From: Takakia lepidozioides
Taxonomy: Eukaryota > Plantae > Bryophyta
Direction of reading: 5' to 3'
Length of the DNA: 64,000 bases
Assembly: GCA_030704615.1 (NCBI GenBank)
Contig: CM060731.1
Coordinates: 91,884,001 to 91,948,000 of the forward strand
Part shown: positions 17,582 to 60,274 of the stretch, one piece after another
Layout of the letters: the number at the start of each line of letters is the position of its first letter
How positions within the stretch are numbered: position 1 is the stretch's first letter
Notes under the pieces: generated by a model
The model's input: the letters and a program-made list of their open reading frames with translations, nothing else
What the model was told of the DNA's origin: nothing
Database searches by the model: none
Translations under genes and position numbers: made by a program

Positions 17582-17583
17582 TT

Positions 17584-28751: not shown

Positions 28752-28765
28752 GGACACGGCTTTTT

Positions 28766-28779: not shown

Positions 28780-28782
28780 TAA

Positions 28783-29762
28783 TGTTAGAGGACTGTCTGG
28801 GACTTAGACACTTATACGGGATCTGTAGGGGGTACCCTTAATTTTTGCACAGACTGAGACCAACAGAGCCTTAGGGGTGACAGCAGCACACTTTAAAAGG
28901 GGGGTTACACAGTCCCGTCACAGCCAACACAGCCGTTCCACAGCCGACACAGCCATCACAGCCGTCACAGTCGTCACAGCCGACACAGCCATCACAGCCA
29001 ACACAGCCCATCACAGCCGACACAGCCACACAGCCAGTCACAGCCCGACACAGCCAAACACAGTTGCACAGCGAGTCACAGCCAGTCACAGCTTGACACA
29101 GCTGTCACGACCATAGCGAAAGGGAGAGCAGGACAGGGAACGACTGTGGGAACAACACCTGCAAATGGAACATGTTAGTTCACGGACGACGGTTAGTGAG
29201 GGAAACGGTTAGAGCCACGGGTAGGAAGATAAAGGGAGAAGCAAAGAGGAAGAAGGGGGGGGGATCAATCTTGGAAGCATTCACGAGGGGGGGAATTTGT
29301 GGTCATGGATGAGAGGGGAGGGGAACGGGCGAGAGAGCAGAACGAACGAGCAAGCATGGAGAGCACGGGAAGGAGGAGAGATGATTAGTAAATGCTTGTT
29401 ATATGCAAAGCTGTAGTGATATTGTAGAGGAGATTAGAGACACAATGGCTTCGGCCTGATACCTGATAAATCATAATCTGATACTTATACGATACATCAC
29501 ACTGTGTAGAGAGATCTGAGTGAAGCTGTGGAATGAATGGATGAGTTGATGAGCAAACTGATACTTCACTTATCAATATAAGGTAGCTAGCTAACATGAA
29601 TGCGGAAAGGAAAACAAATAGGAAACACCCCCATGATACACTAGCTGTAGGTCATGACTGATTGTTCTGAGCGGGCTGAGTACTTAGAGATTTCCAACTC
29701 TTCTATCTTGGAGTTTCCGCCTCGGATAGCGAAAGGGATGGGTGAGTAAAAGCCCCGCGACA
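28783..29762 (+). repeat. 3' LTR
   Basis: Direct repeat of 16585-17581. Confidence 0.96.
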
Positions 29763-35569: not shown

Positions 35570-36254
35570 TATGGCCTCCAACTATACGGAGTGAGCTCTG
35601 AGTGACAACTTTTAGGTAGTGCACATTTGTCATTGCACCGTTCGAAGTCTACATGTCTTGCTGTCGCTATGCACTACAATCATCTTTTGAAGATGATCCT
35701 AACTCTCATTGTTATTTGAGGAGGGAGGAAGGTCTTCCCGTGGCAGCCTTTATGGCGCACACTTTGTGAGGATATTTTGTCGTCCTCGTAATTGTAAAAG
35801 TGAAACAAGCATTTGTAATTGCACAATGTTGGATGCTGCAATTGTAGGCCTCAATGCTCGTCTTGATTCTATTTAGGCAAGATTCCCTGCATTAATTCCA
35901 CGGTCATCCATGGTTATAGGCGGCGCATGTTAATGCTGACGTGGCAGATGACGGACAGTGCCATGTCATCATTTACCGCCACATCAGCATGCTGACATGA
36001 CGCTCACGCCACGTCAGCGTGTGTGCAGGCTCACGCCACGTCACTGGCGTGAGCGTACGCTCACGCCACGTCACTCCTGCGTGAGCGTACACTCGCGCGC
36101 TCACGCGCAACGCTCACGCCATTGCGTCGTTGGATATTGTCAACCATTAATGCACCCCATTAACAATTGCATACTGAATTTAAAGTTCGTGTTAGACAGA
36201 GTCATGTTAGGTCCCGAAGGCGCCGCCTAGCTCCAAGGGTGCTGCTAGTGGGAA

Positions 36255-37595
36255 TGATGACCAGCAAGACCACCAGTGTTTCTTCTATGGTGAGGCTGGG
36301 TTGATGACCAGCAGACCATAGGAGTGTTTGCGGTGGATGCAGGTATAGGTGCAGGTTTATGTTACGAACCTAGCAGTCTAAGCCATAAGCCGCAACAGGT
36401 TCTCTACCCGGTTACCGTGTTGATAGGGGGATTAGAGACAGGTTGACAGCCGGTTGGGTTGTGAGTTTTCATCACGGAGGTGTCACCAGTTGCTGAGGGG
36501 AGTGCCGGTACAAGCACCAGCAATACTAGTGGGTATACAAGACGAGGTGTGCGGTTTAGGCCACGTTCACCTTCAGTGTCTTCTGAGGAAGATTCAGACT
36601 CGGAATCACGAGGATTCTCGCCAAGTGTGCAAGCCATTTCCGTGCCATTGTTGTGGGACACGATGGAGGAGATGTATAGAGCTACCAAGGGGCCACGTAG
36701 GTACTCTAGAGCTGTGGGCACCATCGAGCTTGATGACTTCATACATGAGTTTGATAATTGGTGTGCTTTGCAGCAGATGCGCAATCCACAACTGTTTACG
36801 CCCTTTATGGCGTAGAAGGGGCTATTCCAGCACCTTGAGGGCTCGCCCATAGATGATTACCATGAGTTTAGGCGGGGACATGAGGTACAAATTGAGGAGT
36901 GGCGACAATATTGGTCACCTAATTATGTCTCTATCACTAGAGGCACAGTGACAAGATCCACGATAACCACACCAGCAGCTACACCAGCAGCTTCTGCAAG
37001 TAGCAGTGGAACAAGTGGATCAGGAGCTGGGACATCCACTCCAGCTCCTGCCGCAGCATCAACACCTATACTGCTTGCCTTCAACCTGGTTGTGGAGTTC
37101 TTCCAAGAGTTGAGAAGGAACAACCAGGGGGTGAGGACAGAGAAGTTGCGGAGCTTGCAAGAGTTCCAGCGCAAGCCTACTGAGAGTTTGCGGGAGGCTT
37201 ACACTCGCATGAGGCATTTGATAAGTATAACCCAAGGGGTTACAGAAGCTCAGGCAGTCCAAATTTGGTATGGGATTTTGGACAAGGAGCTTAGGGTACA
37301 AGTGGCCCAAACCCACCTTAGCAAATGTGTTTTTGCTGGCAGAGTAGATAGAGCTCAATATGGTGGAGGAGCGTGTGGTTATGGTGGGACTTGGCAAGGA
37401 GACACAACGAAGTGGTGCTCTTAGCCAACAACAACCACTACCCCAACGCGGCAACAAGGGGGCTCAGACGAAGCCCATGGAAGGTCAGAGAGGATCTCAG
37501 ATGCAGAGGTCTCTTCCTTCATTCTCAGGCCAGCAACAGCCGAGTGTGTCATGTTGGGATTGTAGAGGACCATATGTGAAGGATTGCCCAGAGAG
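36255..37595 (+). mobile_element. Decayed leader and gag fragment of the methyltransferase-bearing Gypsy family
   Basis: Homologous to about 42410-43790 (ATKGPRRYS..VGTIELDDFI.EFD.WC.LQQMRNPQLFTPFMA), with in-frame stops. Confidence 0.88.
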
Positions 37596-37692
37596 AGGCA
37601 AAGGGTCGGCAAATGCTACCCCACTATACCTACTCCCCGCCAACTCTACCCACATTCTTACCGTCGTCTCTCATCACATCACTCCACAGTGC

Positions 37693-38475
37693 TGTCGTGC
37701 GCATACATATCGCTACACAACTACATCGCTGTCCAAAACCACACAACACATGTGCACACCAAACACTAGTCTATCACTAGTCCACCACTAGTGCAGCCAC
37801 TAGTCCATCACTAGGCCGCCACTAGTCCATCACAATGATAAGGAAAAGAATGATACAAGCACACAAGCTTTCTCAAACTCACACACTTGCACATGAAAAC
37901 ATCACTCAAATATTAAGTCGAGCCAAGTGCACCCCACGCCATGGGGAATCCACACTACGGCGCCATAGCTAGACGCGGTGAGGCTCAACTCGAGAAAGAT
38001 GAGCCCACCATGATCTGCCGTGAAGATAACAATGCCAAGTGCCCAAACATATATTGGCCCCTGGATTGACACTTGGGTCAATCTCAAATGTCAATATATA
38101 AAAGCTAGCTATTTCCTAGCTAACTTCACACTAGTGGTAAAATAACTTGACAGCTATTGTGCGCATACATATCGCTACACAACTACATCGCTGTCCAAAA
38201 CCACACAACACATGTGCACACCAAACACTAGTCTATCACTAGTCCACCACTAGGCTGCCACTCCACCACTAGCTAGCACTAGGCTGCCACTAGCCACCAC
38301 TAGTGCAGCCACTAGTCCAACCACTAGGCTACCACTAGCCACCACTAGTGCAACCACTAGTCCATCACAATCGCCCCCCTAGCTGGCGTTAGGTCCCTCT
38401 AAGTCCAGGTAGCCACAAGATGTGATAGTGGCCATAGCCTCACTAAGTCCTCCACCACTGTCCCTACTACAATCA
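37693..38475 (-). mobile_element. 3' end (3'UTR-PPT-B-A-B) of a second subfamily of the permuted-LTR Gypsy
   Basis: Read on the minus strand: PPT at 38383-38371, B1 38370-38155, GC spacer, A 38152-37836 (TGTCAAGTTA...TTATCA), B2 37835-37693 ending GCGCACGACA. Confidence 0.88.
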
Positions 38476-38563
38476 ATACCCGAGATCTCAGGCTCAAGTT
38501 CACAAGTTGCAAGATGGCGACTAACGATGGGGCAACTCTTGTACCCGGCCTCTTGATCTATCG

Positions 38564-38920
38564 TGTCAAGTTAAATAAGCACAGTGTGAAAACAGCTAGA
38601 ATAAAACTAGTTATTTGTATTTAACACTTGGATTTAGGTCAAGTGTTAAATCAGGTGTCAAGTTTAGTTTGACACCTGGTCTGTCTTATCTTCACGAGAG
38701 CGGCAGTCGCGCGGCTCATCTCTCTCGAGTTGAGCCTGCGCGACCGAGCTCCTGCATTCTTCAGATCTGAGTGTGCTTATGATGGGAGTGTAGGTTGTTG
38801 TGGGGTGGAGTCTCCATAGCTTGGGGTGCCCCTGGCTCGACTATTATCTTAAAGAGTGATGTTGAGGGATTGCATATTTCTTGTGTTGAGAGTGTGTGTC
38901 CTTATCTAGTTTGGTTATCA
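38564..38920 (+). repeat. Terminal repeat A1 (357 bp)
   Basis: Direct repeat of 50231-50580. Confidence 0.93.
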
Positions 38921-38934
38921 CTCGAGAGAGATGA
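38920..38934 (+). promoter_or_regulatory. Putative self-priming primer-binding site ACTCGAGAGAGATGA
   Basis: Perfect 15-nt reverse complement of 38716-38730 inside repeat A. No TGG-initiated tRNA PBS follows the repeat. Confidence 0.72.
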
Positions 38935-39809
38935 CTCTATCTAGTTTTCCAGTGCTAAGCTAGATATGATGTTTTTGTTTTTGTTAAGCACTATTGTAAT
39001 ATAGCTTGGCCACAGGGATCAGAACAGGAGGCTTGAGATGCTGCTGCGGTTTTTGTCAACCTGTGGTTATATCTAAGAGTGGGGTGTGTAGGCTGCGCTG
39101 CTGACTGCTTGGCTGGATGAGAGCCGTGCACCGCCGTAGGCAGGGAAGGCGTCAGCTGATCTGAAGAATCGAGTTGATTCTGCTGCCCGCACCAGCAAGA
39201 GGAATCTGGAGGATGGTACCGACCAGGCAGAGAATCTTGGCTCGACTATCCGACAGCAGGCTGAGAATCTGAAAGAAGTTGTCCTTGGCTCCACACCAAG
39301 GAGCGATGGCGAGGGAGCGAGGGAGCGATGGCGGTCTCGCTGCTGAGGCTGTGACGCTGCGCGCCCCCTTCCCACGCTGACAACGCCTATGGCCCCTTCT
39401 TGCAGCCCGCGCTCTTCTCGAGGAGTACTGACGCAGTCGGTGATCGAGCATTCCATCAGCTTGACCAGGGCGCATCTTATGGGGCTGTGTATGCGGTCTC
39501 AGACACTATCAGAAAGGGAAGACAAAGAAGAGGACCTGGAATTGGAGCCAACAGAAGTTTAGGAACTATCCGTGGTAAATATGATGACATGGGAATGCAA
39601 GAGAACTGGAAGAAACGACGGGTGAGTAAGCTGGGTGCACGACTGAAAGTGGGAGTTACCTGCTGGAGATGAGAGAAGCTTAATCTGTTTTAGAAGTCCA
39701 TGGACGCCAGCTTGAAGGTCTAACACTGGTATTACAATACTGGTGTTGAACGGGCTGTGCAACTTGTGGCAGCCTCCTCTTTAGAAACACCAAAGCATAC
39801 CAATATTTT

Positions 39810-40228
39810 GAAGCTTCTACTTGATGGAGCAGTGGCTGGAGCCACGGCAGGTGTAGTTGTGGAGACAGCCCTGTACCCGATTGACACCATAAAGACCCGC
39901 CTTCAGGCAGCGCGGTGTGGTGGGGGGATAGTGTTCAAGGGCCTATACTCAGGTCTTTCCGGCAATCTTGCTGGTGTTTTGCCGGCATTGGAGTGTACGA
40001 ACCCTTAAAGCGCAAGCTGCTGGAGATCTTCCCAGATCACCTCAGCTCTGTTGCATATCTGACAACGGGAGCTGCAGGAGGTGCAGTAGCATCGCTGGTT
40101 TGGGTGCCCACTGAGGTAGTGAAGCAAAGGATGCAAAAGGGCAGTTTGCCTCAGCCTCTGGAGCAGTGCGAGGAATTGTGGCCAAGGAAGGTTTGCGGGG
40201 TCTCTACGCAGGATTTGGATCATTTCTG
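39810..40228 (+). pseudogene. SAMC1: Captured intronless fragment of an S-adenosylmethionine carrier (mitochondrial carrier family, SAMC-like)
   Basis: AGATAGVVVETALYPIDTIKTRLQAAR.GGGIVFKGLYSGLSGNLAGVLPA...GVYEPLKRKLLEIFPDHLSSVAYLTTGAAGG..ASLVWVPTEVVKQRMQ, with two Px(D/E)xx(K/R)x(R/K) carrier signatures. Internally deleted and 3'-truncated. Confidence 0.85.
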
Positions 40229-41317
40229 AATGGCAATCAGCTTGATGGAAGCAGATCTTGGATTGCCTTCTATCTCAACCGGAGTCTGCCCTACTAGGTA
40301 CTTACAACAGTCCCGGCGCACGTTCACCGTCAGATTACCGCAATGCAAGTCAATAGTCAATACGGATTAAGGAAATTCCATGTGGCATGGAGGTCAAGAC
40401 ACATTGAGTTACTGGGTTGCAAGACACATTGCCGCCACTTGAAACCAGTGGGGCATTCTGCGGTCAGAGACTGCCGGTCGATTGGCGAAAGTGTAGGTGA
40501 ACCCGTGTACGTCTACGGTGTCTTTTCTCTGTTGTCGCCACCTTGAAAAATCAGCGCGCTTGTTCCACAAACACAGAGCGCATGTTACAATCAACAGCAA
40601 ACGCAGGAACCTGCAGCTCATCGACATAGACAAACGCATCAGTGCCAAGGGCTTCCTCCCGTAACTAGAATGGGCCGGGACCCGCAAGCTCCAGCACAAA
40701 GTCCAGTGCTTCCCGCTGGTAATCCTCCTCAGTGAGTTTATCGTTAGCCACCAAGGCCTCGAACAGACTGTGAGTGACCCCTCGCCTGTACATGGCGTCC
40801 GTAAAACATGTTTCTTTCCTTCCCCTCTCTTGGTGCGCAGCCTGCAAGCAATCATGGAATCCACTTCTTTCACAACAAGACACTACTGAGTGCCACAATT
40901 CTCTCTCTCTCTCTCTCTCGGTATGCAGAAGACTGGAGCAAGGTGCGAAATATAGGGCACGTGGCCAGGGAACCTAGGATGCCATATAGAACTTAGGGAA
41001 CCGGGAACCAGTTACCAGACATTTGGGTGTAACTTTGAATTTTTAAAACTTGAAAACCTTTAAAAAAAAAAACCCCTTTTTAATCTAATTTGAATGAGTT
41101 GGAGCCAAATTCATCATATCTTTGTCAAATGGACTCTGTTTGACCCAGTTTTTGGGGGGATAGCTGCAGAAAGGGGAAATCTACCTATCTAAACCTGGTT
41201 TCTGTTTGGGGACTCTGCTAAAAATCTATGGAATTTTTAGAGTGTGAGTGTGCCATGAAAGATCCACAATCCTGTCTCTAGAACCTGTGCTGGTCTATAT
41301 GAGAGACAAATTGGTGG

Positions 41318-42079
41318 ATGTACTCCATGCATGGCTGGGGAAATGAGGACGTAATTGAAGGGCAGGTCTCTTCTCTTAGTCTGTGCACACAAGGGGACAC
41401 GATTTATGTTTCCCAAGGAACTCAGACTGATTTGAGTGGAGAACAGTTGGACGAGTTGATTGCATACTGGGAGTCAGGCATTAGCAGTAGACCACAGACT
41501 GCTGTAGTTGGCATTGAGGGCCTCAATATCGCCTTGGACAGTCAGAACTCTGTTGGAGCCAGCAGTTCTGCAGCTGTAGGTGAAATACCAAAGTGGGTGA
41601 AAGCTAGGCTTGGAACACAGCCAAAGACAGCTCCGGGGACCAAGGTGTTCAGCCACAAGGCCGTGGTGTACTGGAGCAGAGGAGCAGGAGCTGCACAAGT
41701 TTGTGCAATTAGACAGTGTTGCAGTCGGACACGCTCTGCACAAGGCAACCACGAGCGGGGGTTCATTAGCGAGGACAAGTTTGTTCTGTTTGAAGGCGAT
41801 GCAGTCATTCGCAATGAAGACACCCGCAATCGTCTCAAAGCTTTCGAGTTGAGAGACTATCAGACCCTACCTTTGTTTTCTTTAGTGTTCAGTGAGCGGG
41901 AGATAGGGGAGTACTGCTTTGTCTCTACCTGGCAGAAATAGGAGGAGGGTTGGTTAGAGCGAGCTACTGTAGCTTGGGACAAGGTTAGTGGCAGGTTTCT
42001 GGACATAGATATACCTCCTACACCTTACCATCAAGCAGAGCGAGGCACTTTGAGAGAAGTCTGGAAGTTGATAGCATAG
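41318..42079 (+). CDS. Orphan ORF upstream of gag (207 aa, about 250 aa if the TAG at 41939-41941 is a lesion)
   Basis: Long ATG-initiated ORF with protein-like composition. The frame stays open for about 45 codons after the stop. No motif recognised. Confidence 0.4.
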
Positions 42080-42596
42080 ATCAGGATTAGATCTTGCTTG
42101 GGCGGGCTTCTATTCTTCCCCTCCATCTCTGTACTATTTTCATTACCTTGTACTTGTAGTTGCCAAAGCCTCTCTTGGTGGAGGCCAGTCAGTCCGGGGT
42201 TTTGGGCTGGGGATATTCTGCAGGATCAACATTGCAGCTGGATTTTGGTGTGGGGGTGTTGATGTTTTGATTTCTTGTGTTTGGATCCCCCCAACACCTG
42301 CATGCTTGACTGTGCGCCATGTTGGTTTTGTGTGGGCGCTTGCTTTCATAGGGATTAGGCCGGATTTGATCACCGGTCAATCCTAGAGTATGCTGTGGTG
42401 GTGAGGCTGGAGTGATGACCAGCAAGACCACCAGTGTTTCTTCTATGGTGAGGCTGGGTTGATGACCAGTCAACCATAGGAGTTCTTGCGGTGGATGCAG
42501 GTGCAGGTGCCCTGAGCCATTGGGATATGACCCTTAGACTGCAACAGGTGCCCACCCGTGTCACTATTAGATTAGTACTAGAGCCTATAGTGTCAC

Positions 42597-45200
42597 GTGG
42601 AGGAGGTGCACATTGTGAGTGTCATTACGGAGTTACCCAAGGGTTTTGAGGGGAGTACGGCTACAAGCAGTGACAGTGAGAGTGGGGTCACAAGACGAGG
42701 TATTCGGTTCAGACCACCTTCACCGCCACCCTCAACTACTGTAGCGTCAGACACAGACTCGGAGGCTTCATCAACAGGTGTGCACTTTCATTCGCCATTG
42801 TTGTGGGACGACATGGAGGTGATGTATGGAGCTACCAAGGGGCCTCGTAGGTACTCTGGAGCTGTGGGCACAATCGAGTTGGATGACTTTATCCAGGAGT
42901 TCGACAGCTGGTGTGATTTGCAGCAGATGCGCAATCCACAGCTATTCACCCCATTCATGGCGTGGAAGGGACTGTTCCAGCATTTGGAAGGCCCGCCTAT
43001 GGACGATTACCACGAGTTCAGGCGAGGACATGAAGCAGAGATTGAGGAGTGGAGGATGTATTGGTCACCTGACTACGTCTCCATTACTCGAGGCACGACG
43101 CGACCAGTAGCGCATCAGTACCCAATAGCTTCCACTGCCAGGCACTAGTAGTGGAGCAAGTAGTGCTGGTACTTCTGCAGGTGGTACCAGTTCAAAAGGT
43201 GCTACTACTCCTCCTGCCACGACAACACATGTGCCTAGATTCAACCCGGTGGTGGAGTTCTTCCAGGAGTTGCGGAGGAACTACCAAGGTGTACGGACAG
43301 AGAAGCTGCGAAGTTTGCAAGACTTCCAGCGCAAACCCAGTGAGCCTGCGAGAGGCGTACACTCGTATGAGGCGCTTGATAAGTGTGACCCAAGGGGTTA
43401 CTGAAGCTCAGGCAATCCAGTTTTGGTATGGAATTCTGGACAAGGAGCTCAAGAGAAGGGTGCGAGATGCAACCCTGTTACAAGCAGCCCAACCCACATT
43501 AGCAGATGTGTTTTTCTGCTGGCTGAGCGGATTGAGCTCAACATGGTGGAGGAGCGAGTTGTTACAATTGGATTTGGCAAGGACATGCCTGTACGGGGCA
43601 CAGCTGTCAGCCCACAGGCACAAGGGACTGCCCAACAGCGTGGTCAGGGGGGCAAGGTTGCCCAGCCCAAGTTCCATGGAGCTTACAGGGGACCTCAGGT
43701 GCAGAGGCCCGTGGCATCTTTTGCAGGCCAACAGCAACCAGGGGTGATATGTTGGACATGTGGAGGACCCCATGTCAAGAGATTGCCCAGAGAGTGGCAG
43801 AAGGCCGGCAAGCACAGCCTGCACAGTTGCAGTGTGGGCATTGTGGCAAGTATGGGCATGGAGATGCCCAGTGTTATGACTTGCATCCTGAGTTGCGCCC
43901 AGGCCAGTTCCAAGGGAACAATGGTGGCCGGGGCGAGGTGGACCAGCCCAAAGAGGACGAGGTGGTCGGGCACGAGGTGCAGGCCAAGGGCAAGCTCCAC
44001 ATGGCCAAGGACGCGGAGGTCAGGGTGTTGACCAAGGCATGGCCAATCGGCTTCAGCAGCTAGAGCAGAGGCTCGCTGCCATGGCTATAGCTCAGGCGGT
44101 ACCGGCTCCCAGGCGGGATGGTCCACCTCCTGCTCCTGAGGGAGGAGATATGGGAGGCATGGGATTCATGTGCGGAGCAGCACTACCACTAGAGCAGGTG
44201 GAGTCTGCTGCAGCCGTGACTCGAGGAGCAGCGAGTTCCTGAGCCACGAGGTGCAGAGGTGGAGTTGGATCCACAACGTGGGGAGGCAAGCCGTCAGGCA
44301 AGGCTGCCTCAGTCATTCACCTTGGCGGAGACAGTGTCAACGCCATCCATGCCTAGTTCTCGCCCGACTGTTACCGAGGCGGAGGTTACTATGCCATTGG
44401 GGAGAGCTACACGTGCAGCACTGACACCTACTACCCAAGGCTAGTGCAGCCGGTGTGTTATTGGGGGCAGCCACCTCTGTGTGTCAAGCCCCACTGTTCT
44501 CGGCAACCATGATTGCGACGCCGGGGTGAGACCAGCTGCAGTGTTCAGACTAGCAGCAACACTCTGTGAGAGTGGGGAGGTCACTTCATCTTCTGCGGAG
44601 TTAGTGGAAGGTGTAGTGGCAGAGGGATCCTCGGATTTGAGGGTCAAGACTGCCACGGCTGCGCCCTGGCAAGCTGCAGCTGCCAGGTTGACGGAGCTGC
44701 CAGCTAGGCCAGCCTTTGAGCGCGCCATGGTGACACCTGGAGTTGTCTTGTTAGACAACCAGGGAGGCATTTTCACTTTGAGTGGACCGGCAGGCAAGAA
44801 GTACCGGCCACTGCGGGTCTTGTTGGACTCAGGAGCTCAGCCACTGATGTTGGGCAGAGCTGCTATTGCAGGTTTGGGCCTCATGGAGGCGGATATGGAG
44901 CCTTGTCCTTTCCAGATACAGACATCTCTGGGAGGATCAGAGCAGGCTCGGGCATGACACGGCATCAGTTGGCTATTAGACTGCAGCCGGATCATCCTGT
45001 AGATGGCTCAGTGATGCGAGCCAAGGCCATTGTGACAGACGCGGTCTCTTACGATGTCCTCGTTGGTGGGGCAGTGTTATACCCCATGGGCTTCACCCTG
45101 GATTTTGGGAGGAGTCAGCATCCTACAGCCTGGATGGCAGTCAGGGGATGGTCGCCGTGCACAGCTCCCTGTGACATTCATTGGGGGTATTGCGCTGCCC
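42597..45200 (+). pseudogene. gag (two Zn knuckles) and aspartic protease of the MTase-bearing Gypsy, frameshifted
   Basis: CWTCGGPHVK.DC and CGHCGKYGHGDAQC knuckles; protease RVLLDSGAQPLML...YDVLVGG. Confidence 0.85.
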
Positions 45201-45519
45201 AGCGGGGCAAGATGCCAACACTAGCCGCCTTCACAGCTGCAGTTAGTTGGCCTGGAGAGTTGCTGGAAGGCAATGCCCATGCAGAGGATGTGCCACCTCC
45301 AGCAGAGCAGGATGACATGCATGGTATGGCGGAGTTGCCTGCCATGGTTGCTCACACTCCATTGTGGGGTACGAGCAAGGATTTGCAGCAGCTGCTGATG
45401 ACGGGTGCAACAAGCTTGGGTAGAAGCTTTTGTACCGTCAGGAGAGGAGGAGAGTGCGGTGATTGCACCAGGGCCACCTCAGTTGTCGCCATTGGACACC
45501 ACACCTCTTGTGTGGCAGG

Positions 45520-46752
45520 CCCGGATGAAGGCATTGCCTTCTGGACTGTTTGGCGGGATCAGCACCGGATTGGCTGCTGTGCTACAGGCAGGTGTACGGT
45601 TCGACGTTACCTGTATGTGGAGAGGGATGAGACTGCACGACGCGTCTCACTGCGCCATGTTGCTCAGTTGGTACAGCAGTACCCTGAGTTGTTGCCGTGT
45701 CTGCAGTTCGTGGATACAACAAGCCTTGCCAGCAGACATTTCGTTGCTGGGGGCGCAGGATTTGGAGCGGGTTGGCTCCATTGATCTGGTAGTGGCAGGT
45801 TGGCCCTGCCAAGGGCATTCATCAGCCGGGCATGGCAATGGATTGCGAGACTCGAGGACGGGTCTGTTTTGGGAGATGGTGCGGATTTTGCGCCACTTGC
45901 AGCTTCATCAAGCTGTATCTCCAGCATACATCTTGGAGAATGTGCCACTGATGGGTGATTCTCGGGGCCAGGGTGATGGCCAGTGTGCATCAAGTCCGGT
46001 CGTGGCTTGGGTCAGCAGTGTTGCTGGATGCAGCTGCAGTGGGGTCACGGGCTCATCGTCCACGACTATGGTGGACTAACTTGATGCCACCCGCACTGCT
46101 CAAGCGTGCATTTGATGGGGTGCAGCGGCCAGCACACCTCACCGTGGATGGCATTTTGGACACAGGAAGGCAGTCTCAACGTGTGAGACACGATGACCGT
46201 TCGCCTTTGGCAGTGGTCAACAGGGTGGGTCAACCACGAGCAGCATTACCTACACTGCTCAGCTTCCCAGGATCCCATGCTTTTCGGGATGGTGGACCTG
46301 GCCTCCTGTGGGATGCTCAGTTGCAGCAGTTAGTGGAGCCTAATGCCGACGAGCGAGAGCGGGCTATGGGGTTTTCCACTGGGACCACGGCGGTGCCTTC
46401 TCTTTCTGAGGCATCACGTCGTCAGGTGTTGGGGCAAGCAATGGATCTCAATTGCTTGACCTGGATTGTCAGCTTGGCTATGGCTGAGCAACGTAGAGTG
46501 CGGAGTGCACTTCCCTTGACGGTCTCTCTGCCTACCGAGACGGTACAGGCAGCGAGTGGGGGCGAGCCGGTGAGGACCACGAGGTGTAGACATCCATGGC
46601 ACACGTGGGAGGTGCTCGAGGTTCAGAGGGAGTTGGCAGCGAAGGCAGCTGTGATGGATGAGGAGGTTCTCAATGATGAGATGATGGGGCAGGATGAGGC
46701 CTTGTCATTGACTGAGCAGGAAGGGGGTACTGCTCAAGAGGTTGCAGCATAG
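45520..46752 (+). CDS. C5 cytosine DNA methyltransferase domain (DNMT3/Dcm-like) embedded in the polyprotein
   Basis: Motifs in canonical order: I LFGGISTG, II YLYVERD, IV IDLVVAGWPCQGHS, VI YILENV, VIII HRPRLWWTNL, IX ERERAMGF, X RQVLGQAMD. The same motifs recur in the second copy at about 52820-53740. Confidence 0.93.
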
Positions 46753-49700
46753 CAACCACGGGACGCGTCCTCTACCTCTAAGCCCACTGGACTTAAGGTT
46801 GCAGTTACGGAGGACAATTGGGAGCCTGACATTGGACCCATTGTCACCGGAGGAGAGAGACGACGTATACGGCGGTTCCTGAGGGCTTACAGGAATTGCT
46901 TTGCCTTCAGTTTGAAGGACTTGGGAGCACTGAAGGGTCAAGAGATCCGTATTGAGTTGGCCACTGACACGCCAATCTTTCGGAGACCCTATAGATACAG
47001 TGACATGGAGAGGTCTTTGATTCAGATGAGGACTCAAGATCTCTGGGAGGCAGGTTTGGTGGAGCTCTCTGGTGGAGAGTATGCTTCAGCCACAGTGATG
47101 CCAGCTAAGAAGGATGTCTATGGCAATTGGACGGAGAGACGTATGTGCGGTGATTACCGGCCTGTAAATCGTCAGACCAAGTCCGATAGGTATGCCATGC
47201 CAACACCAGAGGAGATCTTTGATGCCATTGGGCATTCCAAGGTCTTTAGCACGTTGGATTTACGATCCGGATATCACCAGTTGCCGATCAAGGAGGCGGA
47301 TAAGCAAAAGACGGCATTCTGGGGGATCAATGAGCACGGGAAGGATTGCCTATACCAGTGGCGGTTCTTACCATTTGGGCTTAAAAACGCCCCGCTGAGT
47401 TTCAAAGAGTCATGGACAGGATTCTAGCAGGGGTGGAGTTTGCTCGGTGCTACATATGACATCATCATCTTTAGTGCTACGGTGGAGGAGCATGAGAGAC
47501 ACCTTCAGGGGGTATTTGAGCGCTTGAGGACGCACGGATTGAAGTTACATCCGGGAAAGTGCAAGTTTTTCCACAACCAGATTGAGTATCTGGGTCACAT
47601 GATATATCCTGGAGGATTGGGGGTACAGCAGACTAAGGTAGAGTCCATTGCACAGGTTCCACGCCCCACGGATGTGAGCCGAGTTCGAGCTTTCATGGGG
47701 TTAGCAAACTATTACAGACGGTTTGTTAAGGGATTTAGTGCCATTGCAAAGGCTCTAACCAAGCTGACCAAGGTGGACCAGGAGTGGCAGTGGGAAGATG
47801 AGCAAGAACAAGCTTTTCAAGAGCTCAAGGCGAGGTTGACCTCGGCGCCCATCTTGAGACGACCTATCAGGGGGCGTCCTTTTCAGCTGCATACAGATTG
47901 GAGCATGCTGGGGCTTGGAGCGGTGCTCACACAGGTGGATGATGAGGGAAGAGAGTTCGTAGTGGCTTATGCTAGCCGCTCGAACAATGCTGCAGAGTCT
48001 AAGTATAGCTCATATGAGGAGAATGCTTAGCTGCAGTGTGGGCCGTGGCACACTTCAGGTGCTATCTATACGGCAATCTCTTCACCCTTGTCACGGATCA
48101 CCAACCACTCAAGTGGTTGATGGAGTCAGACAAGCTTACGGGGAAGCTTGCACGGTGGGCACTCATCCTTCAAGAGTATGACTTTCAGGTGGTGCATCGA
48201 CCGGGTTTGGTCAATCGAAAATGCAGATGGGTTGAGTCGCAATCCATGCACGAGCCAGCAGGATGACACTGGAGCTCGGTGGCATGGTGAGACGGACGAG
48301 GAGATGGTGCCCGGATGGCATGCATCTGCATTTCTGTGTATCTTGGCAGCGGAAGGCCAGGTTGGACCTACAACAGGGATGACTGTAGATCAAGTGTCTG
48401 AGGACCCTGAGGCCAGCAATGAGCAAGGTGGCGCCAAAGATATACATGAGGATTCAGTTGTGTTGGACTACCTCCGCACTGGAGACACGGCAGCCACTGT
48501 GACTGCCAAGGAGAGGGATCGGATCCTACAACGAGCCAAGAGGTTCAGTGGGAGGGGACACACCTGCTCCGAGTGTGGGAGGATGGTCGAGTGAGGATTG
48601 TGCCTCACCCAACACAGCGGGCACGGTTAGTGCGGCATGCCCATGAGGAGTTGGGGCATTTTGGGGTGCGACGCACTCATAGTCTACTGCAGGGGCAGTA
48701 TTGGTGGCGTGGTATGCACACAGAGGTGCAACAATTTGTGGCTAGGTGCATGGTGTGTGACAGGTGCGTGCTTCTTCATTCAACGCCCCTACTCCACAAT
48801 TGCACCCTCTTCCGATCATGGGATTGGGCTACAGGTGGAGTCTTGACTTCGCAGGGCCGTTGCCACTGACCATGCGCCACAACAAGTACGTGTTGGTGAT
48901 GGTGGAGCACTTCTCCAAGTGGATTGAATTGGTTCCATTGCCTGATAAGGCTAGTGAGGGAGGCTGCGTATGCATTCTGGATTGTGTGCTTAGCCGATTC
49001 GGTGCTCCAGCTGAGGTACTCACGGACCAAGGGAGAGAGTTCTTGGGGGAGTTTCAGGCTTTGTGTGACAAGGCCTTGATAGACCACCGCACCACTTCTC
49101 GGGATCATCCTGAGCCGATGGCTTGGCAGAGAGAGTTGTTCAGACAGTAAAGAGGGGTTTGCGCAAGTATGGCTTGCAGAAGGGACACCTAGGAGATTGG
49201 GACCTTCAGTTACCCTGGTTAGCCATGGGCTACAGGTTCAGCAAGCAAGCATCACTTGCCTCCTTCTCACCATACTTTCTTCTCTTTGGCCGAGAGCCGG
49301 ATTTGCCTACATCCATTCGCAGAGAAGCTGCTACAGTTCTTAACCTTGACGATCCGGACGTGTGGGCACGTGCATGTGAGCAGCGTGCAGAGTTGTTCAA
49401 GAGAGTCATGCCCATGGCTTTCGAGAACCTTGCCATTGCACAACACCGTGATACGTTGAGGTATGCTACCATACGTGGTGGGGGCTATCGTCCTGGGGTT
49501 CGGAGATTCAACCCTGGTGACTATGTCTATCTGCAGCAGACTGCTCCTACGACCCTGGATGTGACTGCAGGACGTGTTATTTTGAGGGTTCGAGAGGTCT
49601 TGCCCTCAGGCGTCTTGGTCTTGGAGGGTCGGGATGGCATAACTTGGAAGGACCATGTGCGTAATTGTGCGCCATGTCACCTTCCGAATGTCGATGGCAG

Positions 49701-49884
49701 GATTGACCCAAACCTGGCAGTGGTATCTGCAGGTTTGAGGTGCATGTTGTGTGGGTCTGCTAAAGGGGCAGCCACCATGCTGGTGTGTGATCGATGCTCT
49801 AGAGGTTGGCATATGGGATGCTTGACTCCACCTCTTGAGATGGTTCCGGATGGGGATTGGTTATGTCCACATTGCATTGGATAG
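46753..49884 (+). CDS. RT - RNase H - integrase - PHD finger (frameshifted in this assembly)
   Basis: RT FSTLDLRSGYHQ, LPFGLKNAP, YIDD (intact in the second copy); RH LHTDWS..GLGAVL; IN H-x4-H...CMVC, WSLDFAGP, LTDQGREF, AERVVQTVK; PHD CMLC...MLVCDRCSRGWHMGCLTPPLEMVPDGDWLCPHC. Confidence 0.93.
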
Positions 49885-50128
49885 TGGGAGTGGATACAAC
49901 CATGGAAGGCTAACAAGAAACGCAAGGCCCAGCTACTAGGAGACCTTGAACACACGAGATCTTGGCTCAAGTTCACAGATTGCAAGACGGCGACTAACGA
50001 TGGGGCTACTCTTGTACCCGGCCTCTTGGTCTATAGAGTTTGAGTACATAGGGACAGTGATAGAGGACTTAGTACGGCTGTGGCTATTACATCTTGTAGC
50101 TATCTGGAGGTAGAGGGACCTATCCACC

Positions 50129-50142
50129 AGCTAGGGGGGCGA
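50129..50142 (+). promoter_or_regulatory. Polypurine tract AGCTAGGGGGGCGA
   Basis: Abuts repeat B1 and is conserved in the minus-strand copy at 38371-38384. Confidence 0.75.
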
Positions 50143-50665
50143 TTGTGGCAGACTACTTTATTGTGCATATATGTGTGGTGTGGTTTGGACAGCGATGTAG
50201 TTGTGTAGCGATATGTATGCGCACGACAGCTGTCAAGTTAAATAAGCACAGTGTGAAAACAGCTAGAATAAAACTAGTTATTTGTATTTAACACTTGGAT
50301 TTAGGTCAAGTGTTAAATCAGGTGTCAAGTTTAGTTTGACACCTGGTCCGTCTTATCTTCACGAGAGCGGCAGTCGCGCGCTCATCTCTCTCGAGTTGAG
50401 CCTGCGCGACCGAGCTCCTGCATCTTTAGATCTGAGTGTGCTTATGATGGGAGTGTAGGTTGTTGTGGGGTGGAGTCCCCATAGCTTGGGGTGCCCCTGG
50501 CTCGACTATTTTTAAAGAGTGATGTTGAGGGATTTCATATTTCTTGTGTTGAGAGTGTGTGTCCTTTCTAGTTTTTATCATTGTGCAGACTACTTTATTG
50601 TGCATATATGTGTGGTGTGGTTTGGACAGCGATGTAGTTGTGTAGCGATATGTATGCGCACGACA
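50143..50665 (+). repeat. 3' terminal repeats B1 (50143-50228), GC spacer, A2 (50231-50580), B2 (50581-50665)
   Basis: B1 and B2 are near-identical 85-86 bp direct repeats, A2 matches A1, and the B1/A2 junction is the palindrome GACAGCTGTC. Confidence 0.93.
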
Positions 50666-51077
50666 ATCGAGTTTGATTTTTATTTTATTTTTTTCTTTTT
50701 CACTCTGACTGTTCGCGGCCTTCCGTGGCTCCAACCGCCACGACTCCGCACGCCCGCCCTAGGCGCTCGTTGGCCACGGGCTGCCCCGTGATACCCCATG
50801 GTACCCCACACCCCGAGCCTTCACGACCCGCCATCCCCACGATCTGGTCACCGTGCCCACCCGTGGTGTCCGCACCACGGCTTTCCACGGTCACGGTCAA
50901 CGGTCACGGTCAACAGTTACGGCCTGAGCTCGTGGTATCTCGTGATACCACCCCCACGGCCCATCACGGCCACTGTTCCCTACGTTCCCAAGAACTCCAC
51001 ACGAGTTTCTATGCGTTTCCGATCGCTCCCCGGGACGTTCCCACGTTCCCGAGCTCTCCCCCCGAGCTGGGTTTGCT

Positions 51078-54000
51078 CCTGAGTTGCGCCCGGCCAGTTC
51101 TAAGGAACAATGGTGGCCGGGGCAAGGTGGAGCAGCCCAGAGAGGACGAGGTGGCCAGGCACGAGGTGCAGGCCAAGGGCAAGCTTAACATGGCCAAGGA
51201 CGCGGAGGTCAAGGTGTTGACCAAAGCATGGCCAACCGGCTTCAGCAGCTAGAGCAGAGGCTCGCTGTCATGGCCACAGCTCAGGTGGTACCGGTTCCAA
51301 GGCCGGATGGTCCACCTCCTGCTCCTGAGGAAGGAGACATGGGAGGCATGGGATTCATGTGCAGGGCAACACTACCACTAGTGAGGGGTGCCACTACCAC
51401 TACCACTATGGTGGGGGCCACTACCACTACCACTATGTGCGGGGCAGGACTATCACTAGTGCAAGTGGAATCAGCTGCGGCAGTGACTCAAGGAGCAGCA
51501 CGAGTTCTTGAGCCACGGGGTGCGGAGGTGGAGTTGGATCCACAACATGGGGAGGCAAGCCGTCAGGCCAGGCTTCCTCAGTCATTCACATTGGCGGAGA
51601 CAGTGTCGACGCCGTCCATGGCACCTAGTTCTTACCCGACTGTTACCGAGGCGAAGGTTATTATGCCATTGGGGAGAGCTATACGGGCAGCACCACTACC
51701 TAGTGTTGCCAAGGCTACGGCAGCTAGTGTGCTGCTGGGGGCGGCCACATCTGTGTGTCAGGCTCCATTGTTCTCGGCTATCATGATTGCGACGCCAAGG
51801 GTAAGACCAGCTGAGGTGTTCAGGCTGGCAGCACACTCTGTGAGAGTGGGGAGGTTACTTCATCTTCTGCGGAGATAGTGGGAGGTGTAGTGCCGGAGGG
51901 ATCCTCGGATGTGAGGGTCAAGACTGCCACGGCGATGCCATGGCAAGCTGCAGCTGCTAGGTTGGCGGAGCTGCCAGCTAGGCCAGCCATTGAGCGCGCC
52001 ATGGTGACACCTGGAGTTGTCATGTTAGACAACTAGGATGGCATTTTCTATTTGAGTGGACCGGCAGGCAAGAGGTACCGGCCACTGCGAGTCTTGTTGG
52101 ACTCGGGAGCTCAGCCATTGATGTTGGGCAGAGCTGCTATTGCAGGCTTGGGCCTCACGGAGGCGGATATGGAGCCGTACCCTTTCCAGATACAGACATC
52201 TCTGGGAGGATCAGAGCAGACTCGGGGCATGACACGGCGTGAGTTGGCTATCAGACTATAGCCGGATCATCCTACAGATGGCTCAGTGATGAGAGCCAAG
52301 GCCATTGTGACAGACGCGGTCTCGTACGATGTCCTTGTTGGTGGGGCAGTGTTGTACCCCATGGGCTTCACCCTGGATTTTTGGGAGGAGTCAGCTTCCT
52401 ATAGGCCTGGATGGCAGTCAGGGGAGGGCCGGCGTGTGCAACTCCCTGTGACTTTCATAGGAGGAGTTGCGGTTGCCCAGCGAGGCAAGATGCCGACACT
52501 AGCAGCATTCACAGCTACAGTGAGTTGGCCTGGAGAGTTGCTTGAGGGCAACGCTCATTCAGAGGATGTGTCACCTCCGGGAGAGCAGGATGACATGTAT
52601 GGTATAGCAGAGTTGCCTGCCATGGTTGCTCACACTCCATCGTAGGGCTCGAGCAAGGATTTGCAGCGGGTTACTGATTGTCGTGTGCAACAAGCCTGGG
52701 TAAAGGCTTTTGTACCGTCAGGAGAGGAGGACAGTGCGGGGATTGCACCAAGACCACCCTCAGTTGTCACCATTGGACACCACCACACCGATCGTGTGGC
52801 GTGTCCGGATGAAGGCATTTGCCTTCTGGACTTGTTTGGCGGGATCAGCACCGGATTGGCTATTGTGCTATAGGCAAGTGTATGGGTACGGCGTTACTTG
52901 TATGTGGAGAGGAATGAGACTGCACGACGCATCTCCCTCCATCTTGTTGCTCAGTTGGTGCAGCAGTACCCTGAGTTGTTGCCGGTGTCTGCAGTTTGTG
53001 GATATCAGCAGGCCTTGCCAGCAGACATTTCGTTGCTGGGGGCACAGGATTTGAAGCGGGTTGGCTCCATTGATCTGGTAGTGGCAGGTTGGCCGTGCCA
53101 AGGGCATTCATCAGTTGGTCATGGCATGGATTGCGAGACTCGAGGTCGGTCTGTTTTAGATGGTGTGCGGGTTTTGCGCCACTTACAGCTTCATCAAGCT
53201 TATCTCCAGCATACATCTTGGAGAATGTGCCACTGAGGGCGATTCTCCGGGCCAGTGTGATGGCCAGTGTGCATCAAGTCCGGTCGTGGCTTGGGTCAGC
53301 AGGTTTGCTGGATGCAGCTGCATGGGGTCACGGGCTCATCGTCCACGGTTATGGTGGACTAACTTGATGTCACCTGCACTGCTCAAGCGTGCATTTGATG
53401 GGGTGCAGCGGCCAGTACACCTCACAGTTGATAGCATCTTGGACATAGGGAGGCAGTCTCAGCGTGTGAGACACGATGACCGTTCGCCTTTGGCAGTGGT
53501 CAACAAGGTGGGTCAACCACAAGCAGTACTACCTACACTGCTCAGCTTCCCAGGATCGCATGCTTTCTGGGATAGTGGACCTGGCCTCCTGTGGGATGCT
53601 CAGCTGCAGCAGTTAGTGGAGCCTAATGCCGACAAGCGAGAGCGGGCTATGGGTTTTCCACTAGGACCACGGCGGTGCCTTCTCTTTCTGAGGCATCACG
53701 TCGTCAGGTGTTGGGGCAAGCGATGGATCTCAATTGCTTGACCTGGATTATCAGCTTGGCTATGGCTGAGCAACGTAGAGTGCGGAGTGCACTTCTTTTT
53801 ACGGTCTCTCTGCCTACCGAAACAGTATAGGCAGTGAGTGGGGGCGAGCCGGTGAGGACCACGGGGTGTAGACATCCATGGCACATGTGGGAGGTGCTCG
53901 AGGTTCAGAGGGAGTTGGCAGCCAAGGCGGCTGTGATGGATGAGGTTGGGGATTCTTCTCGGGTTGAGGAGGTCCTCAAGGATGAGATGATGGGGCAGGA

Positions 54001-56800
54001 TGAGGCCTTGTCATTGACTGAACAGGCAGGGGTACTACTCATGAGGTTGCGGCATAGCAACCACAGGACGCGTCTCCTACCTCTAAGTCTGCTGGACTTA
54101 AGGTTGCAGTTACGGAGGACAATTGGGAGCCTGACATTGGACCCATTGTCACTGGAGGAGAGAGACAACGTATACAGCGGTTCCTAAGGGCTTACAGGAA
54201 TTGCTTTGCCTTCAGTTTGAAGGATTTGGGAGCACTGAAGGGTCAGGAGATTTGTATTGAGTTGGCCACGGACACGCCAATCTTTTGAAGACCCTACAGA
54301 TACAGTGACATGGAGAGGTCTTTGATTCAGCTGAGGACTCAAGATCTCTGGAAGGCTGGTTTGGTGGAACTCTCTGGTGGAGAGTATGCTTCAACCACCG
54401 TGATGCCAGCCAAGAAGGATGTCTATGGCAATTGGACGGAGAGACGTCTGTGCGGTGATTACTGAGCTGTAAATCGTCAGACCAAGTCCGATAAGTATGC
54501 CATGCCCACACCGGAGGAGATCTTTGATGCCATTGGGCATGCCAAGGTCTTTAGCACTCTGGACTTGCGGTCCGGATATCACCAGTTGCCGATCAAGGAG
54601 GCAGACAAGCAGAAGACGGCATTCTGGGGGATCAATGAGCATGGGAATGATTGCCTATATCAGTGGCGGTTCTTACCATTCGGGCTTAAGAACGCTCTGC
54701 AGAGTTCCAGAGAGTCATGGACAGGATTCTAGCAGGGGTGGGCTTTGCTTGGTGCTACATAGATGACATCATCATCTTTAGTGCTACGGTGGAGGAGCAC
54801 GAGAGACACCTTCAGGTGGTGTTTGAGCGCTTGAGAGTTCACGGATTGAAATTACATCCGGGGAAGTGCAAGTTCTTCCACAACCAGATTGAGTATCTGG
54901 GCCACATGATATATCCTGGAGGATTGGGGGTACAACAGACTAAGGTAGAGGCCATCGCACAGATTCCACGTCCCACGGATGTGAGCCGAGTTCGAGCTTT
55001 CATGGGGTTGGCAAACTACTATAGGCGGTTTGTCAAGGGATTTAGTACTATTGCAAAGGCTCTAACCAAGCTAACCAAGGTAGACCAGGAGTGGCAGTGG
55101 GAAGATGAGCAAGAACGAGCTTTTCAAGAGCTCAAGGCGAGGTTGACCTCGGCGCCTATCCTGAGACGACCTATCAGGGGGCGTCCCTTTCAGCTGCATA
55201 CAGATTGGAGCATGTTGGGGCTTGGAGCGGTGCTCACACAGGTGGATGATGAGGGAAGAGAGTTTGTAGTGGCTCATGTTAGCCGCTCAAACAACGCTGC
55301 AGAGTCTAAGTATAGCTCATAGCTGCAGTGTGGACCGTGGCACACTTCAGGTGCTATCTATATGACAATCTCTTCACCTTTGTCACGGATCACCAGCCAC
55401 TCAAGTGGTTGATGGAGTCAGACAAGCTTACGGGGAAGCTTGCACGGTGGGCACTTATACTCCAGGAGTATGACTTTGAGGTTGAGATGGACGAGGAGAT
55501 GGTGTCGGGATGACATGCATCTGCCTTTTTGTGTATCTTGGCATTGGGAGGTCAGGTTGGACCTACAACAAGGATGACTGTAGATGGAGTGTCTGAGGAC
55601 CCTGAGGCTAGTGATGAGCTAGGTGGTGCCAGAGATATACATGAGGATTCGGTTATGCTGGACTACCTCCGCACTGGAGACACGGCAGCTAGTGTGACTG
55701 CCAAGGAGAGGGATCGGATCCTACAACGAGCCAAGAGATTCAAGTGGGAGGGGATACACCTGCTTCGAGTGTGGGAGGATGGTCGGGTGAGGATTGTGCC
55801 TCACCCAACACAACGTGCACGGTTAGTGCGGCATGCCCATGAGGAGTTGGGGTATTTTGGAGTGCGGCGCACTCATAGTCTACTGCAGGGACAGTATTGG
55901 TGGCGTGGTATGCACACAGAGGTGCAACAGTTTGTGGCTAGGTGCATGGTGTGTGATAGGGTGCGTGCTTCATTCAACGCCCCTACACCATAGTTGCATC
56001 ATTTACCCATCATGGGATTGAGCTACAGGTGGAGTCTTGACTTCGCAGGGCCATTGCCACTGACGATGCGCCACCACAGATATGTGTTGATGATAGTGGA
56101 GCACTTCTCCAAGTAGATTGAGTTGGTTCCATTGCCTGACAAGACTAGTGACAGGGCTGCGTATGCATTCCTGGATCGTGTGCTTAGCCGATTCGGTGCT
56201 CCAGCTGAGGTACTCACAGACCAAGGGAGAGAGTTCTTGGGGGAGTTTCAGGCTTTGTGTGATAAAGCCTTGATAGACCACCGTACCACTTCTCGGGATC
56301 ATCTTGAGGCCGATGGCTTGGCAGAGAGAGTGGTGTAGACGGTAAAGAGGGGTTTGCGCAAGTATGGCTTGCAAAAGGGACACCTAGGAGATTGGGATCT
56401 TCAGGTACCTTTGTTAGCCATGGGCTACAAATTTAACAAGCAAGCATCACTTGCCTCCTTCTCACCATATTTCCTTCTCTTTAGCCGAGAGCCAGATTTG
56501 CCTGCGTCTATTTGCAGGGAGGCTGCAGTAGTCCTCAACCTTGTTGATCCGGATGTGTGGACACAAGCATGTGCCCAGTGGGCAGAGTTGTTCAAGAGGG
56601 TCATGCCCATGGCTTTTGAGAACCTTGCTATTGCCCCACACCGAGACACATTGAGGTATGTCACTATAAGTGGTTGCACTAGTGGCAGGACTAGCGGTGC
56701 ACTAGTGGTGGATTAGTGATAGACTAGTGTTTGGTGTGCACATGTGTTGTGTGGTTTTGGACAATGATGTAGTTGTGTAGCGATATGTATGCGCACGACA
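51078..56800 (+). mobile_element. Decayed 5'-truncated copy of the MTase-bearing Gypsy (gag C-terminus, PR, C5-MTase, RT, RH, partial IN, B repeat)
   Basis: Colinear homology to about 43887-49475 with many stops. A deletion joins IN to a B repeat that ends at GCGCACGACA (56800). Confidence 0.92.
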
Positions 56801-58651: not shown

Positions 58652-59485
58652 CACTGGCCGTGGCCAGCGTAACTAAGAGCCACTTGGTCTTGCGGCTACT
58701 GCCCATTTTCAGGGGTGGGCCCTATGTAAAAATAACCGGTGTCCAGGGGACACCAAGTAACCAGTCTGGGGGGGAGGCCTCCGGTAGGGACGGTACCGCC
58801 TGGCACCCAGGGGGGGGCCCAGGGGGGCACCCCATGGGTGCCCACCAGGTAACCAACTATATGTATCTATGAGGCAAGAGCGGGGTTTGATTCAAGCTGT
58901 CGTTTGTTGGTGATGATAGCAGTGAGAGAACGGAGGGCCGTGAGGTGTATGGCTTTGAAGCATTTGTGGATGGAAATGATGGGGAGTTTAAAGTTATTGT
59001 GAAGTTCAAAGATGTTGGCATTGTGGATGCCTCCTCTGGTACCGGCAGTGATGACACTGAGGGGGCCTGTGGCCCAACCTCTCCGGCGGATAGCAAGAAT
59101 AAGTGGTGCATATTTTTGGCGTTTCTTGAGGATGGAGGAGCTGGGGTAGCGGTCATGGCAGAATGTGAATTCTAAGAAGTGTATGGTAATGGCGGGGGAC
59201 GGGGCAGAGGGTGGTGGGGCATTGATGGGGAGCCCCTGGACTACGAGGATATCCAGACAGAGGCGGGAAGGGCATATACACATGATGTGTGGGGGCGGCA
59301 TATACAGGGGAGAAGCCACGGAGGTACCGTATGGTCTGGGGGCCGGCCTTGGTAAGGTGCCCGCATTGATGAGTGAGAACCATCGAGTTTCATTACGTCG
59401 TTGTAGGAGTTTGTGGATTTGCCATACAGCGTGGTTGTGTCGTGCAATACGAAGCCCGTGAATGACTGGGTTGGGGCATTCGCTT
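58650..59485 (-). mobile_element. 5'-truncated non-LTR retrotransposon with a restriction-like endonuclease (RLE) C-terminus
   Basis: C......LRIARHN...RL(C/P)(L/P)DIL...IHFLEFTFC...KKRQKY..L...GW....VITAGTRG matches the RHN / PD-(D/E)xK / K..KY layout. A GC-rich 3'UTR follows and abuts (TC)n. Confidence 0.75.
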
Positions 59486-60240: not shown

Positions 60241-60274
60241 ACCGTTTTTCTTCCTCTTGTCAACGCCGCTGGAT

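Follow-up and report, generated by a model that had tools for sequence, protein, structure and literature searches.

Permuted terminal repeats and a candidate integration junction within the long terminal repeat of a Gypsy retrotransposon from Takakia lepidozioides

A 64,000-nucleotide stretch of the genome of the bryophyte Takakia lepidozioides (assembly GCA_030704615.1, contig CM060731.1, positions 91,884,001 to 91,948,000; hereafter the window) contains a retrotransposon that is Gypsy by its proteins and not by its end structure, because repeat A stands alone at the left and B-A-B stands at the right. How could an integrase of the DDE type insert an element whose ends, as marked by a target site duplication (TSD), lie inside its own long terminal repeat (LTR)? 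Here we describe the anatomy of the element, the ends of its relatives and the route of integration that these features suggest. The best reading, which on balance we favor, is that the ends of the cDNA would be joined into a circle and that the circle would be opened by the integrase at an internal palindrome.

Permuted repeats and the predicted cDNA

Comparison of the window with itself, together with exact mapping, gives the order ATCG / A1 - internal region - polypurine tract (PPT) - B1 - GC - A2 - B2 / ATCG (Table 1). A first-pass annotation of this DNA had proposed the arrangement A-internal-B-gc-A-B within a TSD, and its coordinates hold. A1 and A2 differ by five substitutions over approximately 350 bp and by a few gaps of one base (LTR divergence 1.4%), and B1 and B2 are a single gap apart. 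The element starts with TGTC and ends with GACA. The only exact instance of the palindrome GACAGCTGTC in the window lies at 50225-50234, the B1/A2 junction. Several features are those of Ty3/Gypsy elements, namely a TSD of 4 bp, a primer site that follows the 5' repeat and a PPT ahead of the 3' repeat. The element lacks a pair of complete, identical LTRs with the PPT and the primer site as their limits. The split direct repeats are a feature of DIRS, PAT and Ngaro elements, and A-coding-B-A-B repeats in company with Gypsy domains are a feature of elements like KnitGypsy-Dnmt3 of the alga Klebsormidium nitens.

The element landed in a remnant of its own family's 3' region. At 38475-38563, the left flank is a 90% match to 49949-50035 in that region, and the right flank (AGTTTGA) carries on the same homology. 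ATCG is a true target duplication because both flanks belong to one continuous fragment.

The 14 nucleotides that follow A1 are exactly complementary to 38716-38729, a match equaled by none of 200 shuffles. The two sites are paired in both the minimum free energy fold and the centroid fold (z -3.3). Priming by a tRNA was considered and rejected for self-priming on account of the 14-nt exact complement in A and the predicted pairing; no tRNA gene was found in the window. The sequence of the primer site differs among three families, yet it is complementary to a site in A, which in two families of relatives lies approximately 30 nt past TATAAA. The complementarity is significant in the window and in four of seven relative loci (L003, L006, L009 and L048), and weak or absent in the other three (L022, L025 and L078). 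The RNA likely starts in the middle of A, and the PPT adjoins B1 in every family. In the standard pathway of reverse transcription, an RNA start in mid-A and a PPT against B give BA-internal-BA. The cDNA should have this form because the self-priming sites co-vary across three families and the PPT abuts B. The start of the cDNA as defined by the PPT varies in the relatives (TTGTG, GTTGTG, ATACATG, TTTGAG, ATGACG), and in one family it is without a terminal TG.

Ends of the relatives and the route of integration

Relatives were taken from metagenome contigs, as the best 80 of at least 434 loci. Right ends of the form PPT-B-nn-A-B were found in 24 of the 80 rows (17 distinct insertions). A single B that closes at (G/A)ACA and is followed by unrelated DNA was found in 25 rows (22 insertions). 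In five more the palindrome is present with no B2 in view (L013, L015, L035, L041 and L052), and 26 loci are uninformative. Each of the 39 distinct right ends closes with GACA, or with AACA where GACA has decayed, and all ten distinct left ends, with the window element counted, start with TGTC after unrelated DNA and have no B in front. The nine two-ended copies have a perfect 4-bp TSD in six cases, one mismatch in two and none in one; six perfect duplications in nine are expected by chance in AT-rich DNA with P ~2e-12. Among two-ended copies with a single B, three of five have a perfect TSD. An exact DNA search of metagenome contigs with the B end gave 0 matches.

The junction CGACA-GC-TGTCA after the PPT is recognizable in 21 relative insertions, decay allowed. 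In a tree of integrases the window element falls together with a K. nitens protein (27 rows, 100/99, the published KnitGypsy-Dnmt3 copies not being among the rows), and the palindrome junction occurs on both sides of the midpoint root. It is found in L035, whose sister is the Klebsormidium protein (100/99), and in L052, which lies among chlorophyte proteins. The palindrome is kept across the relatives while the PPT-defined start of the cDNA drifts. The permuted layout is a trait of the lineage. The first-pass annotation had suggested that a DDE integrase uses an att-like palindrome inside the LTR, and the idea is strengthened by the relatives' ends, their TSDs and the conserved palindrome.

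Contigs from sequencing runs of this organism bear on the same ends. Runs X1 and X2 are one sample, possibly the source of the assembly, and X6 is from an independent study. Among the matches listed, 42 and 36 contigs of X2 exit B at GACA into unlike flanks; in X6 one contig exits A at TGTC and one exits B. Absent rows at 50143, at 50580 and at the start of A were not counted as evidence. Three further observations were not used. One X2 contig that links the left flank with A (50034 to 50231) is anchored by only 26 letters on one side, and the contigs at the A'/B2' join by only 27, both below the bridging rule; a further X2 joint, in which a variant of the A end meets the G-run of the PPT (50567 to 50135), may be a join that retains the PPT.

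Related copies are nested in the window, and the coding region of the element has many single-base frameshifts for an LTR divergence of 1.4%. Both facts would suit an assembly artefact or the chance nesting of an ordinary BA-internal-BA element. This explanation is already largely refuted by the 17 independent B-A-B ends in other assemblies, by the TSDs at TGTC and GACA and by the run contigs that exit B at GACA, and it can be given next to no credence.

The layout also resembles that of tyrosine recombinase elements, and such an enzyme, supplied in trans or by a missed open reading frame (ORF), might insert a circle at the palindrome. A decayed domain may escape Pfam scans of broken ORFs. The first-pass annotation had advised a search for this enzyme; the search gave no Pfam match to a tyrosine recombinase in all 74 ORFs of at least 70 aa from the element or in 68 ORFs of at least 90 aa from four two-ended relatives. 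The varied 4-bp TSDs outside the element and the lost central GC are signatures of DDE enzymes, and the D, D and E of the integrase are retained. Insertion by a tyrosine recombinase is, on this evidence, highly improbable. That the DDE integrase cuts at the internal palindrome, in some form, is by comparison a claim we would make with considerable confidence from the sequence features above.

In the reading that we favor, the RNA would start in mid-A and self-prime, and the PPT would prime at B, giving the cDNA BA-internal-BA. The blunt ends of the cDNA would be end-joined into a 2-LTR circle, with the A/B2 join made afresh in each round. The integrase would nick the palindrome after CA on each strand and leave a 2-bp stagger, two CA-3'OH ends and 5'-GC overhangs, which is the geometry of processed retroviral ends. 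Strand transfer would then create the 4-bp TSD with loss of the GC. Copies of the form A-internal-B could come from 1-LTR circles or from linear cDNA cut at both palindromes. Overall, the route would be analogous to the junction integration of the IS3 family with reverse transcription placed upstream. A closed 2-LTR circle is the probable substrate. For the Gypsy clade of the green lineage, from chlorophytes to bryophytes, the route would mean that the att sites have moved from the cDNA termini into U3, that the end-joined 2-LTR circle is obligatory and that host end-joining is needed; to this broader proposal we give an even chance.

The A2/B2 join is informative here. Among 14 insertions of one family, whose primer site begins ATTC, the join is blunt in six, carries +AT in three and +ATTT, +ATA and +T in one each, and has deletions in two. 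When sub-lineages are distinguished by their B sequence, all three contain blunt as well as +AT joins. The join is also blunt in both subfamilies of the window and in L012 and L022; a deletion of ~220 bp is found at the join in L044 and short deletions in L047. B2 shares sub-lineage marks with the B1 of its own copy (mean distance 0.081 within against 0.111 between copies). Mean distances and shared indels were used here in place of a nearest-neighbor test of B2 to its own B1, which was weak (4/15) because of CpG decay. An invariant B1/A2 junction beside a variable A2/B2 join favors a sequence of events in which end-joining would be followed by precise internal cutting.

A different origin of the join would be templating of the DIRS/PAT kind. 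The transcript would run from A1 to B2, A/B2 would be inherited, B1-GC-A2 would template 2-nt extensions and the integrase would trim linear ends. The repeat order is as in tyrosine recombinase elements (PMC5890265, Fig. 1e legend), the join is identical in the two subfamilies of the window, and CA plus 2 nt is the normal geometry of 3' processing. However, self-priming sets the 5' end of the RNA in mid-A, the PPT lies against B1 in every family and the join types are scattered over sub-lineages. We regard templating as improbable.

Several points weigh against joining into a circle and opening at the palindrome. A symmetric circle should also yield the mirror form A-B-A-internal-B, which is found at 0 of 10 left ends; four two-ended A-internal-BAB copies against 0 mirror copies is a small sample (~0.06 under 50:50). 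Run X2 has no loose-end row at the start of A among the matches listed, while its B-end rows are large. Single-B copies can equally come from recombination between B1 and B2 or from assembly collapse. L013 reads PPT-B-A straight into the primer site, a canonical-looking BA, although it may be a collapsed contig, a tandem or a circle. L035 has no B2 within 1.29 kb after the palindrome, and a TSD is missing from L075. Slippage on the first bases of B, rather than a remnant of the primer site, could explain the +AT joins, and the identical join in the two subfamilies of the window would be expected from inheritance as well. Lastly, the circle, the cDNA and the activity of the integrase are deduced from sequence. 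Of the circularized cDNA in the first-pass annotation, the joining of ends is thus the part favored by the variable A2/B2 join, and the circle, with its mirror product missing, is still inferred.

The missing mirror form (0/10) would be accounted for if the internal palindrome were used with no monomer circle. B2 would then arise by an end-to-end jump of the reverse transcriptase (RT) or by the fusion of linear cDNAs head to tail, and cutting would favor the left palindrome on a linear or concatemeric substrate. Variable joins and single-B copies are compatible with such a route. It requires an extra bias, however, and the deletions in L044 and L047 suit end-joining repair well. We consider it unlikely, though it deserves to be taken seriously.

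Coding content and neighboring copies

The Pfam matches of the element stand in the order C5 DNA methylase, RT, RNase H, integrase (H2C2 and core) and PHD. The order RT-RNase H-integrase in pol is that of Ty3/Gypsy elements, as is the DDE integrase with its H2C2 domain, and a Dnmt3-related methylase in pol is a KnitGypsy-Dnmt3-like feature. No chromodomain, a feature of Tcn1 chromoviruses, was matched by Pfam after the integrase, where a PHD finger is found instead. The methylase is 57% identical to the Marchantia protein P0128, whose PDB matches are all DNMT3A/B/C (24/24), and its named relatives are from Marchantia, Sphagnum and Calypogeia. The integrase-PHD region is 80% identical to Marchantia Mp_7g09570, ~46-51% to chlorophyte proteins and 55% to K. 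nitens KFL_015960010, a member of the same clade that may belong to a KnitGypsy-Dnmt3 copy. Taken by themselves, these matches suggest that the host is likely a land plant without seeds. The first-pass annotation did not contain the DNMT3-like methylase, the PHD finger or the self-priming nature of the primer site.

Table 1. Features of the Takakia element and of related copies in the window.
Feature	Position	Strand	Remarks
PPT-B-GC-A-B end of a diverged subfamily copy	37693..38383	-	
Left TSD, ATCG	38560..38563	+	Identical 4 bases at 50666-50669
A1	38564..38920	+	Begins TGTC, closes TTATCA; covers promoter part, R and U5, the right side of the LTR as reverse-transcribed
Probable 5' end of the RNA, self-primer	38716..38729	+	Exact complement of primer site
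Self-priming primer-binding site	38921..38934	+	Adjoins A1
Mitochondrial-carrier fragment	39724..40226	+	Intronless, frameshifted passenger; Pfam Mito_carr E 4e-9, 2e-7
Gag-like and protease-like region	42591..44954	+	Frameshifted; LLDSGA motif by eye
C5 cytosine methyltransferase domain, DNMT3-like	45540..46500	+	Frameshifted; PF00145 E 6e-13
RT and RNase H	46753..48263	+	RVT_1, RT_RNaseH; interrupted by stops and frameshifts
DDE integrase (H2C2, rve) with C-terminal PHD finger	48450..49881	+	D, D, E kept across frameshift
PPT	50130..50142	+	Adjoins B1; placed alike in relatives
B1	50143..50228	+	Left part of U3, closing CACGACA
Palindrome GACA-GC-TGTC, candidate att junction	50225..50234		Abutted right and left element ends with 2-bp spacer
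GC spacer, B1/A2	50229..50230		
A2	50231..50580	+	
A2/B2 join, TTATCA/TTGTG	50575..50585	+	U5 end fused to PPT-defined U3 start
B2	50581..50665	+	Right end of element
Right TSD, ATCG	50666..50669	+	
Third copy	51073..56800	+	90% identical; ends GCGCACGACA; deletion from integrase into B

In the assembly, the element is a broken copy. Many single-base frameshifts lie in 42591-49881 despite the 1.4% divergence of A1 and A2, and some of them may be assembly errors. The gag/protease region (42591..44954) has no Pfam match; a paralogous stretch at 36816-37421 has a weak Retrotrans_gag match (E 0.006) that is below the cut-off. The region from primer site to gag is 2-3 kb longer than in the relatives, and an ORF of 212 aa with no Pfam match occupies 41303-41941 in the 5' internal region. 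The mitochondrial-carrier fragment is probably a captured mRNA. We take it (39724-40226) to resemble the plant S-adenosylmethionine carrier, a curious likeness within an element that carries a methylase.

The position of the methylase represents a switch of domain order within the clade. A methylase-like domain follows RT-RNase H in P0040, P0041, P0043, P0061 and P0082 and precedes RT in the window element and in P0017; the after-RT form is found in several more distant proteins, including one from Pleodorina. In the chlorophyte-type relative L052 the open reading extends past the PHD finger (~+1 to +1100), and the PPT and palindrome lie 3.8-3.9 kb downstream.

Two further copies had been reported in the first-pass annotation, and both are seen. 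The diverged subfamily copy at 37693-38383 has the same B-A-B order and the same TTATCA/TTGTG join, on the minus strand at 37841, and its B1 end reads CAATA-GC-TGTC through mutation. The third copy (51073..56800) closes at 56800 with GCGCACGACA, though it is internally deleted and its left end is not visible. The diverged end lies within another gag copy (36251-37612), an instance of the family nested in itself. The B of this subfamily contains a variable array of short ACTAGT-containing units (38230-38370 and 37760-37835), whose number is unequal in the B1 and B2 of one copy. Directly left of the element, at 38358-38563, two pieces of the family 3' region adjoin head to head in opposite orientation.

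Elsewhere in the window, imperfect repeat arrays of 50, ~60 and ~100 bp with internal palindromes fill 59800-61700 and are adjoined by a short RT fragment (59406-59612). A second, unrelated LTR element occupies 16585-29762, with repeats of ~1 kb that are 91% identical and decayed RT and integrase near 21700-23700. A long minus-strand ORF with a POX domain (2103-3926) is an exon of a BEL1-like homeobox gene.

Comparison with known systems

PAT, Ngaro and DIRS elements use a circular intermediate and, to our knowledge, have no PPT or primer-binding site and make no TSD. Unlike the Takakia element, they encode a tyrosine recombinase and no DDE integrase. They share with it the order A-coding-B-A-B, which is given as the DIRS-type structure in PMC5890265 (Fig. 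1e legend). The same paper ascribes a DIRS-type repeat structure with Gypsy domains to KnitGypsy-Dnmt3 of Klebsormidium nitens (de Mendoza et al. 2018, PMC5890265, Fig. 4c legend). Like the Takakia element, KnitGypsy-Dnmt3 combines a Gypsy Pol with a Dnmt3-related methylase (PMC5890265). The claim of the first-pass annotation that no such Gypsy lineage had been described was overstated, since the KnitGypsy-Dnmt3 layout is in print. Section 9 and the legends of PMC5890265 describe no TSD, palindrome, primer site or mechanism for it, and the supplements of that paper gave no match for KnitGypsy, PHD or TSD. No paper on integration of a Gypsy element through an internal palindrome was found by title or abstract, in a search that left subscription journals, theses and Repbase reports mostly outside. 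The layout has apparently been noted once in print, and the mechanism that we infer is apparently undescribed.

Other Gypsy elements share single features. Gypsy-7a_cRei of Chlamydomonas reinhardtii is active in strains kept in the laboratory, 15.4 kb long and, like the Takakia element, a Gypsy with a PHD finger (PMC9940879). Its LTR has subparts, and the left LTR is without the last 8 bp of the right LTR (PMC9940879, Fig. 6 legend). The account in PMC9940879, the description on which this comparison is made, lists no methylase, unlike the Takakia element. Tf1/Sushi elements are established self-primers, and Tcn1 is predicted to be one (PMC6317226). As described there, these elements resemble the Takakia element in their self-priming primer site, DDE integrase and TSD, whereas they have a chromodomain rather than a PHD finger and ordinary paired LTRs. 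Neither 'PHD' nor 'methyltransferase' occurs in the main text of this survey (PMC6317226).

The lineage is natural, old and widespread, and with it the use of a circle junction as the normal substrate of a retroviral-type integrase would become directly testable. Relatives for such work are found in Marchantia, and possibly an active one in Chlamydomonas. The layout also matters for annotation. Methods that search for pairs of LTRs will mis-bound these elements, because they will report A..A pairs without a TSD, and solo A-B products resemble ordinary LTRs. Retrotransposons that carry DNMT3 are extended from one alga to bryophyte genomes.

In plants, 2-LTR circles are described as by-products of end-joining (PMC7197481), and such circles are more generally presented as host-made by-products of failed integration (PMC7197481, PMC5314604). 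Two systems offer analogies to the route proposed here. Foamy-virus integrase is reported to cleave a palindrome at 2-LTR circle junctions and, as the Takakia integrase might, to open the circle there and give processed ends (PMC1180852). In that virus the integrase cuts where the two LTRs meet, which restores a normal provirus (PMC1180852), whereas in the Takakia element the cut would fall inside the LTR and the product is permuted. In IS911, of the IS3 family, a DDE enzyme integrates a circle through its abutted right and left ends, much as would happen in the Takakia route (PMC1636345). IS911 is a bacterial DNA transposon whose junction is made in each round by the transposase, whereas the Takakia junction belongs permanently to U3 and is inherited. 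If the proposed route is true, this retroelement would integrate like an IS3 minicircle, through an intermediate that is a dead end for other LTR elements and for retroviruses.

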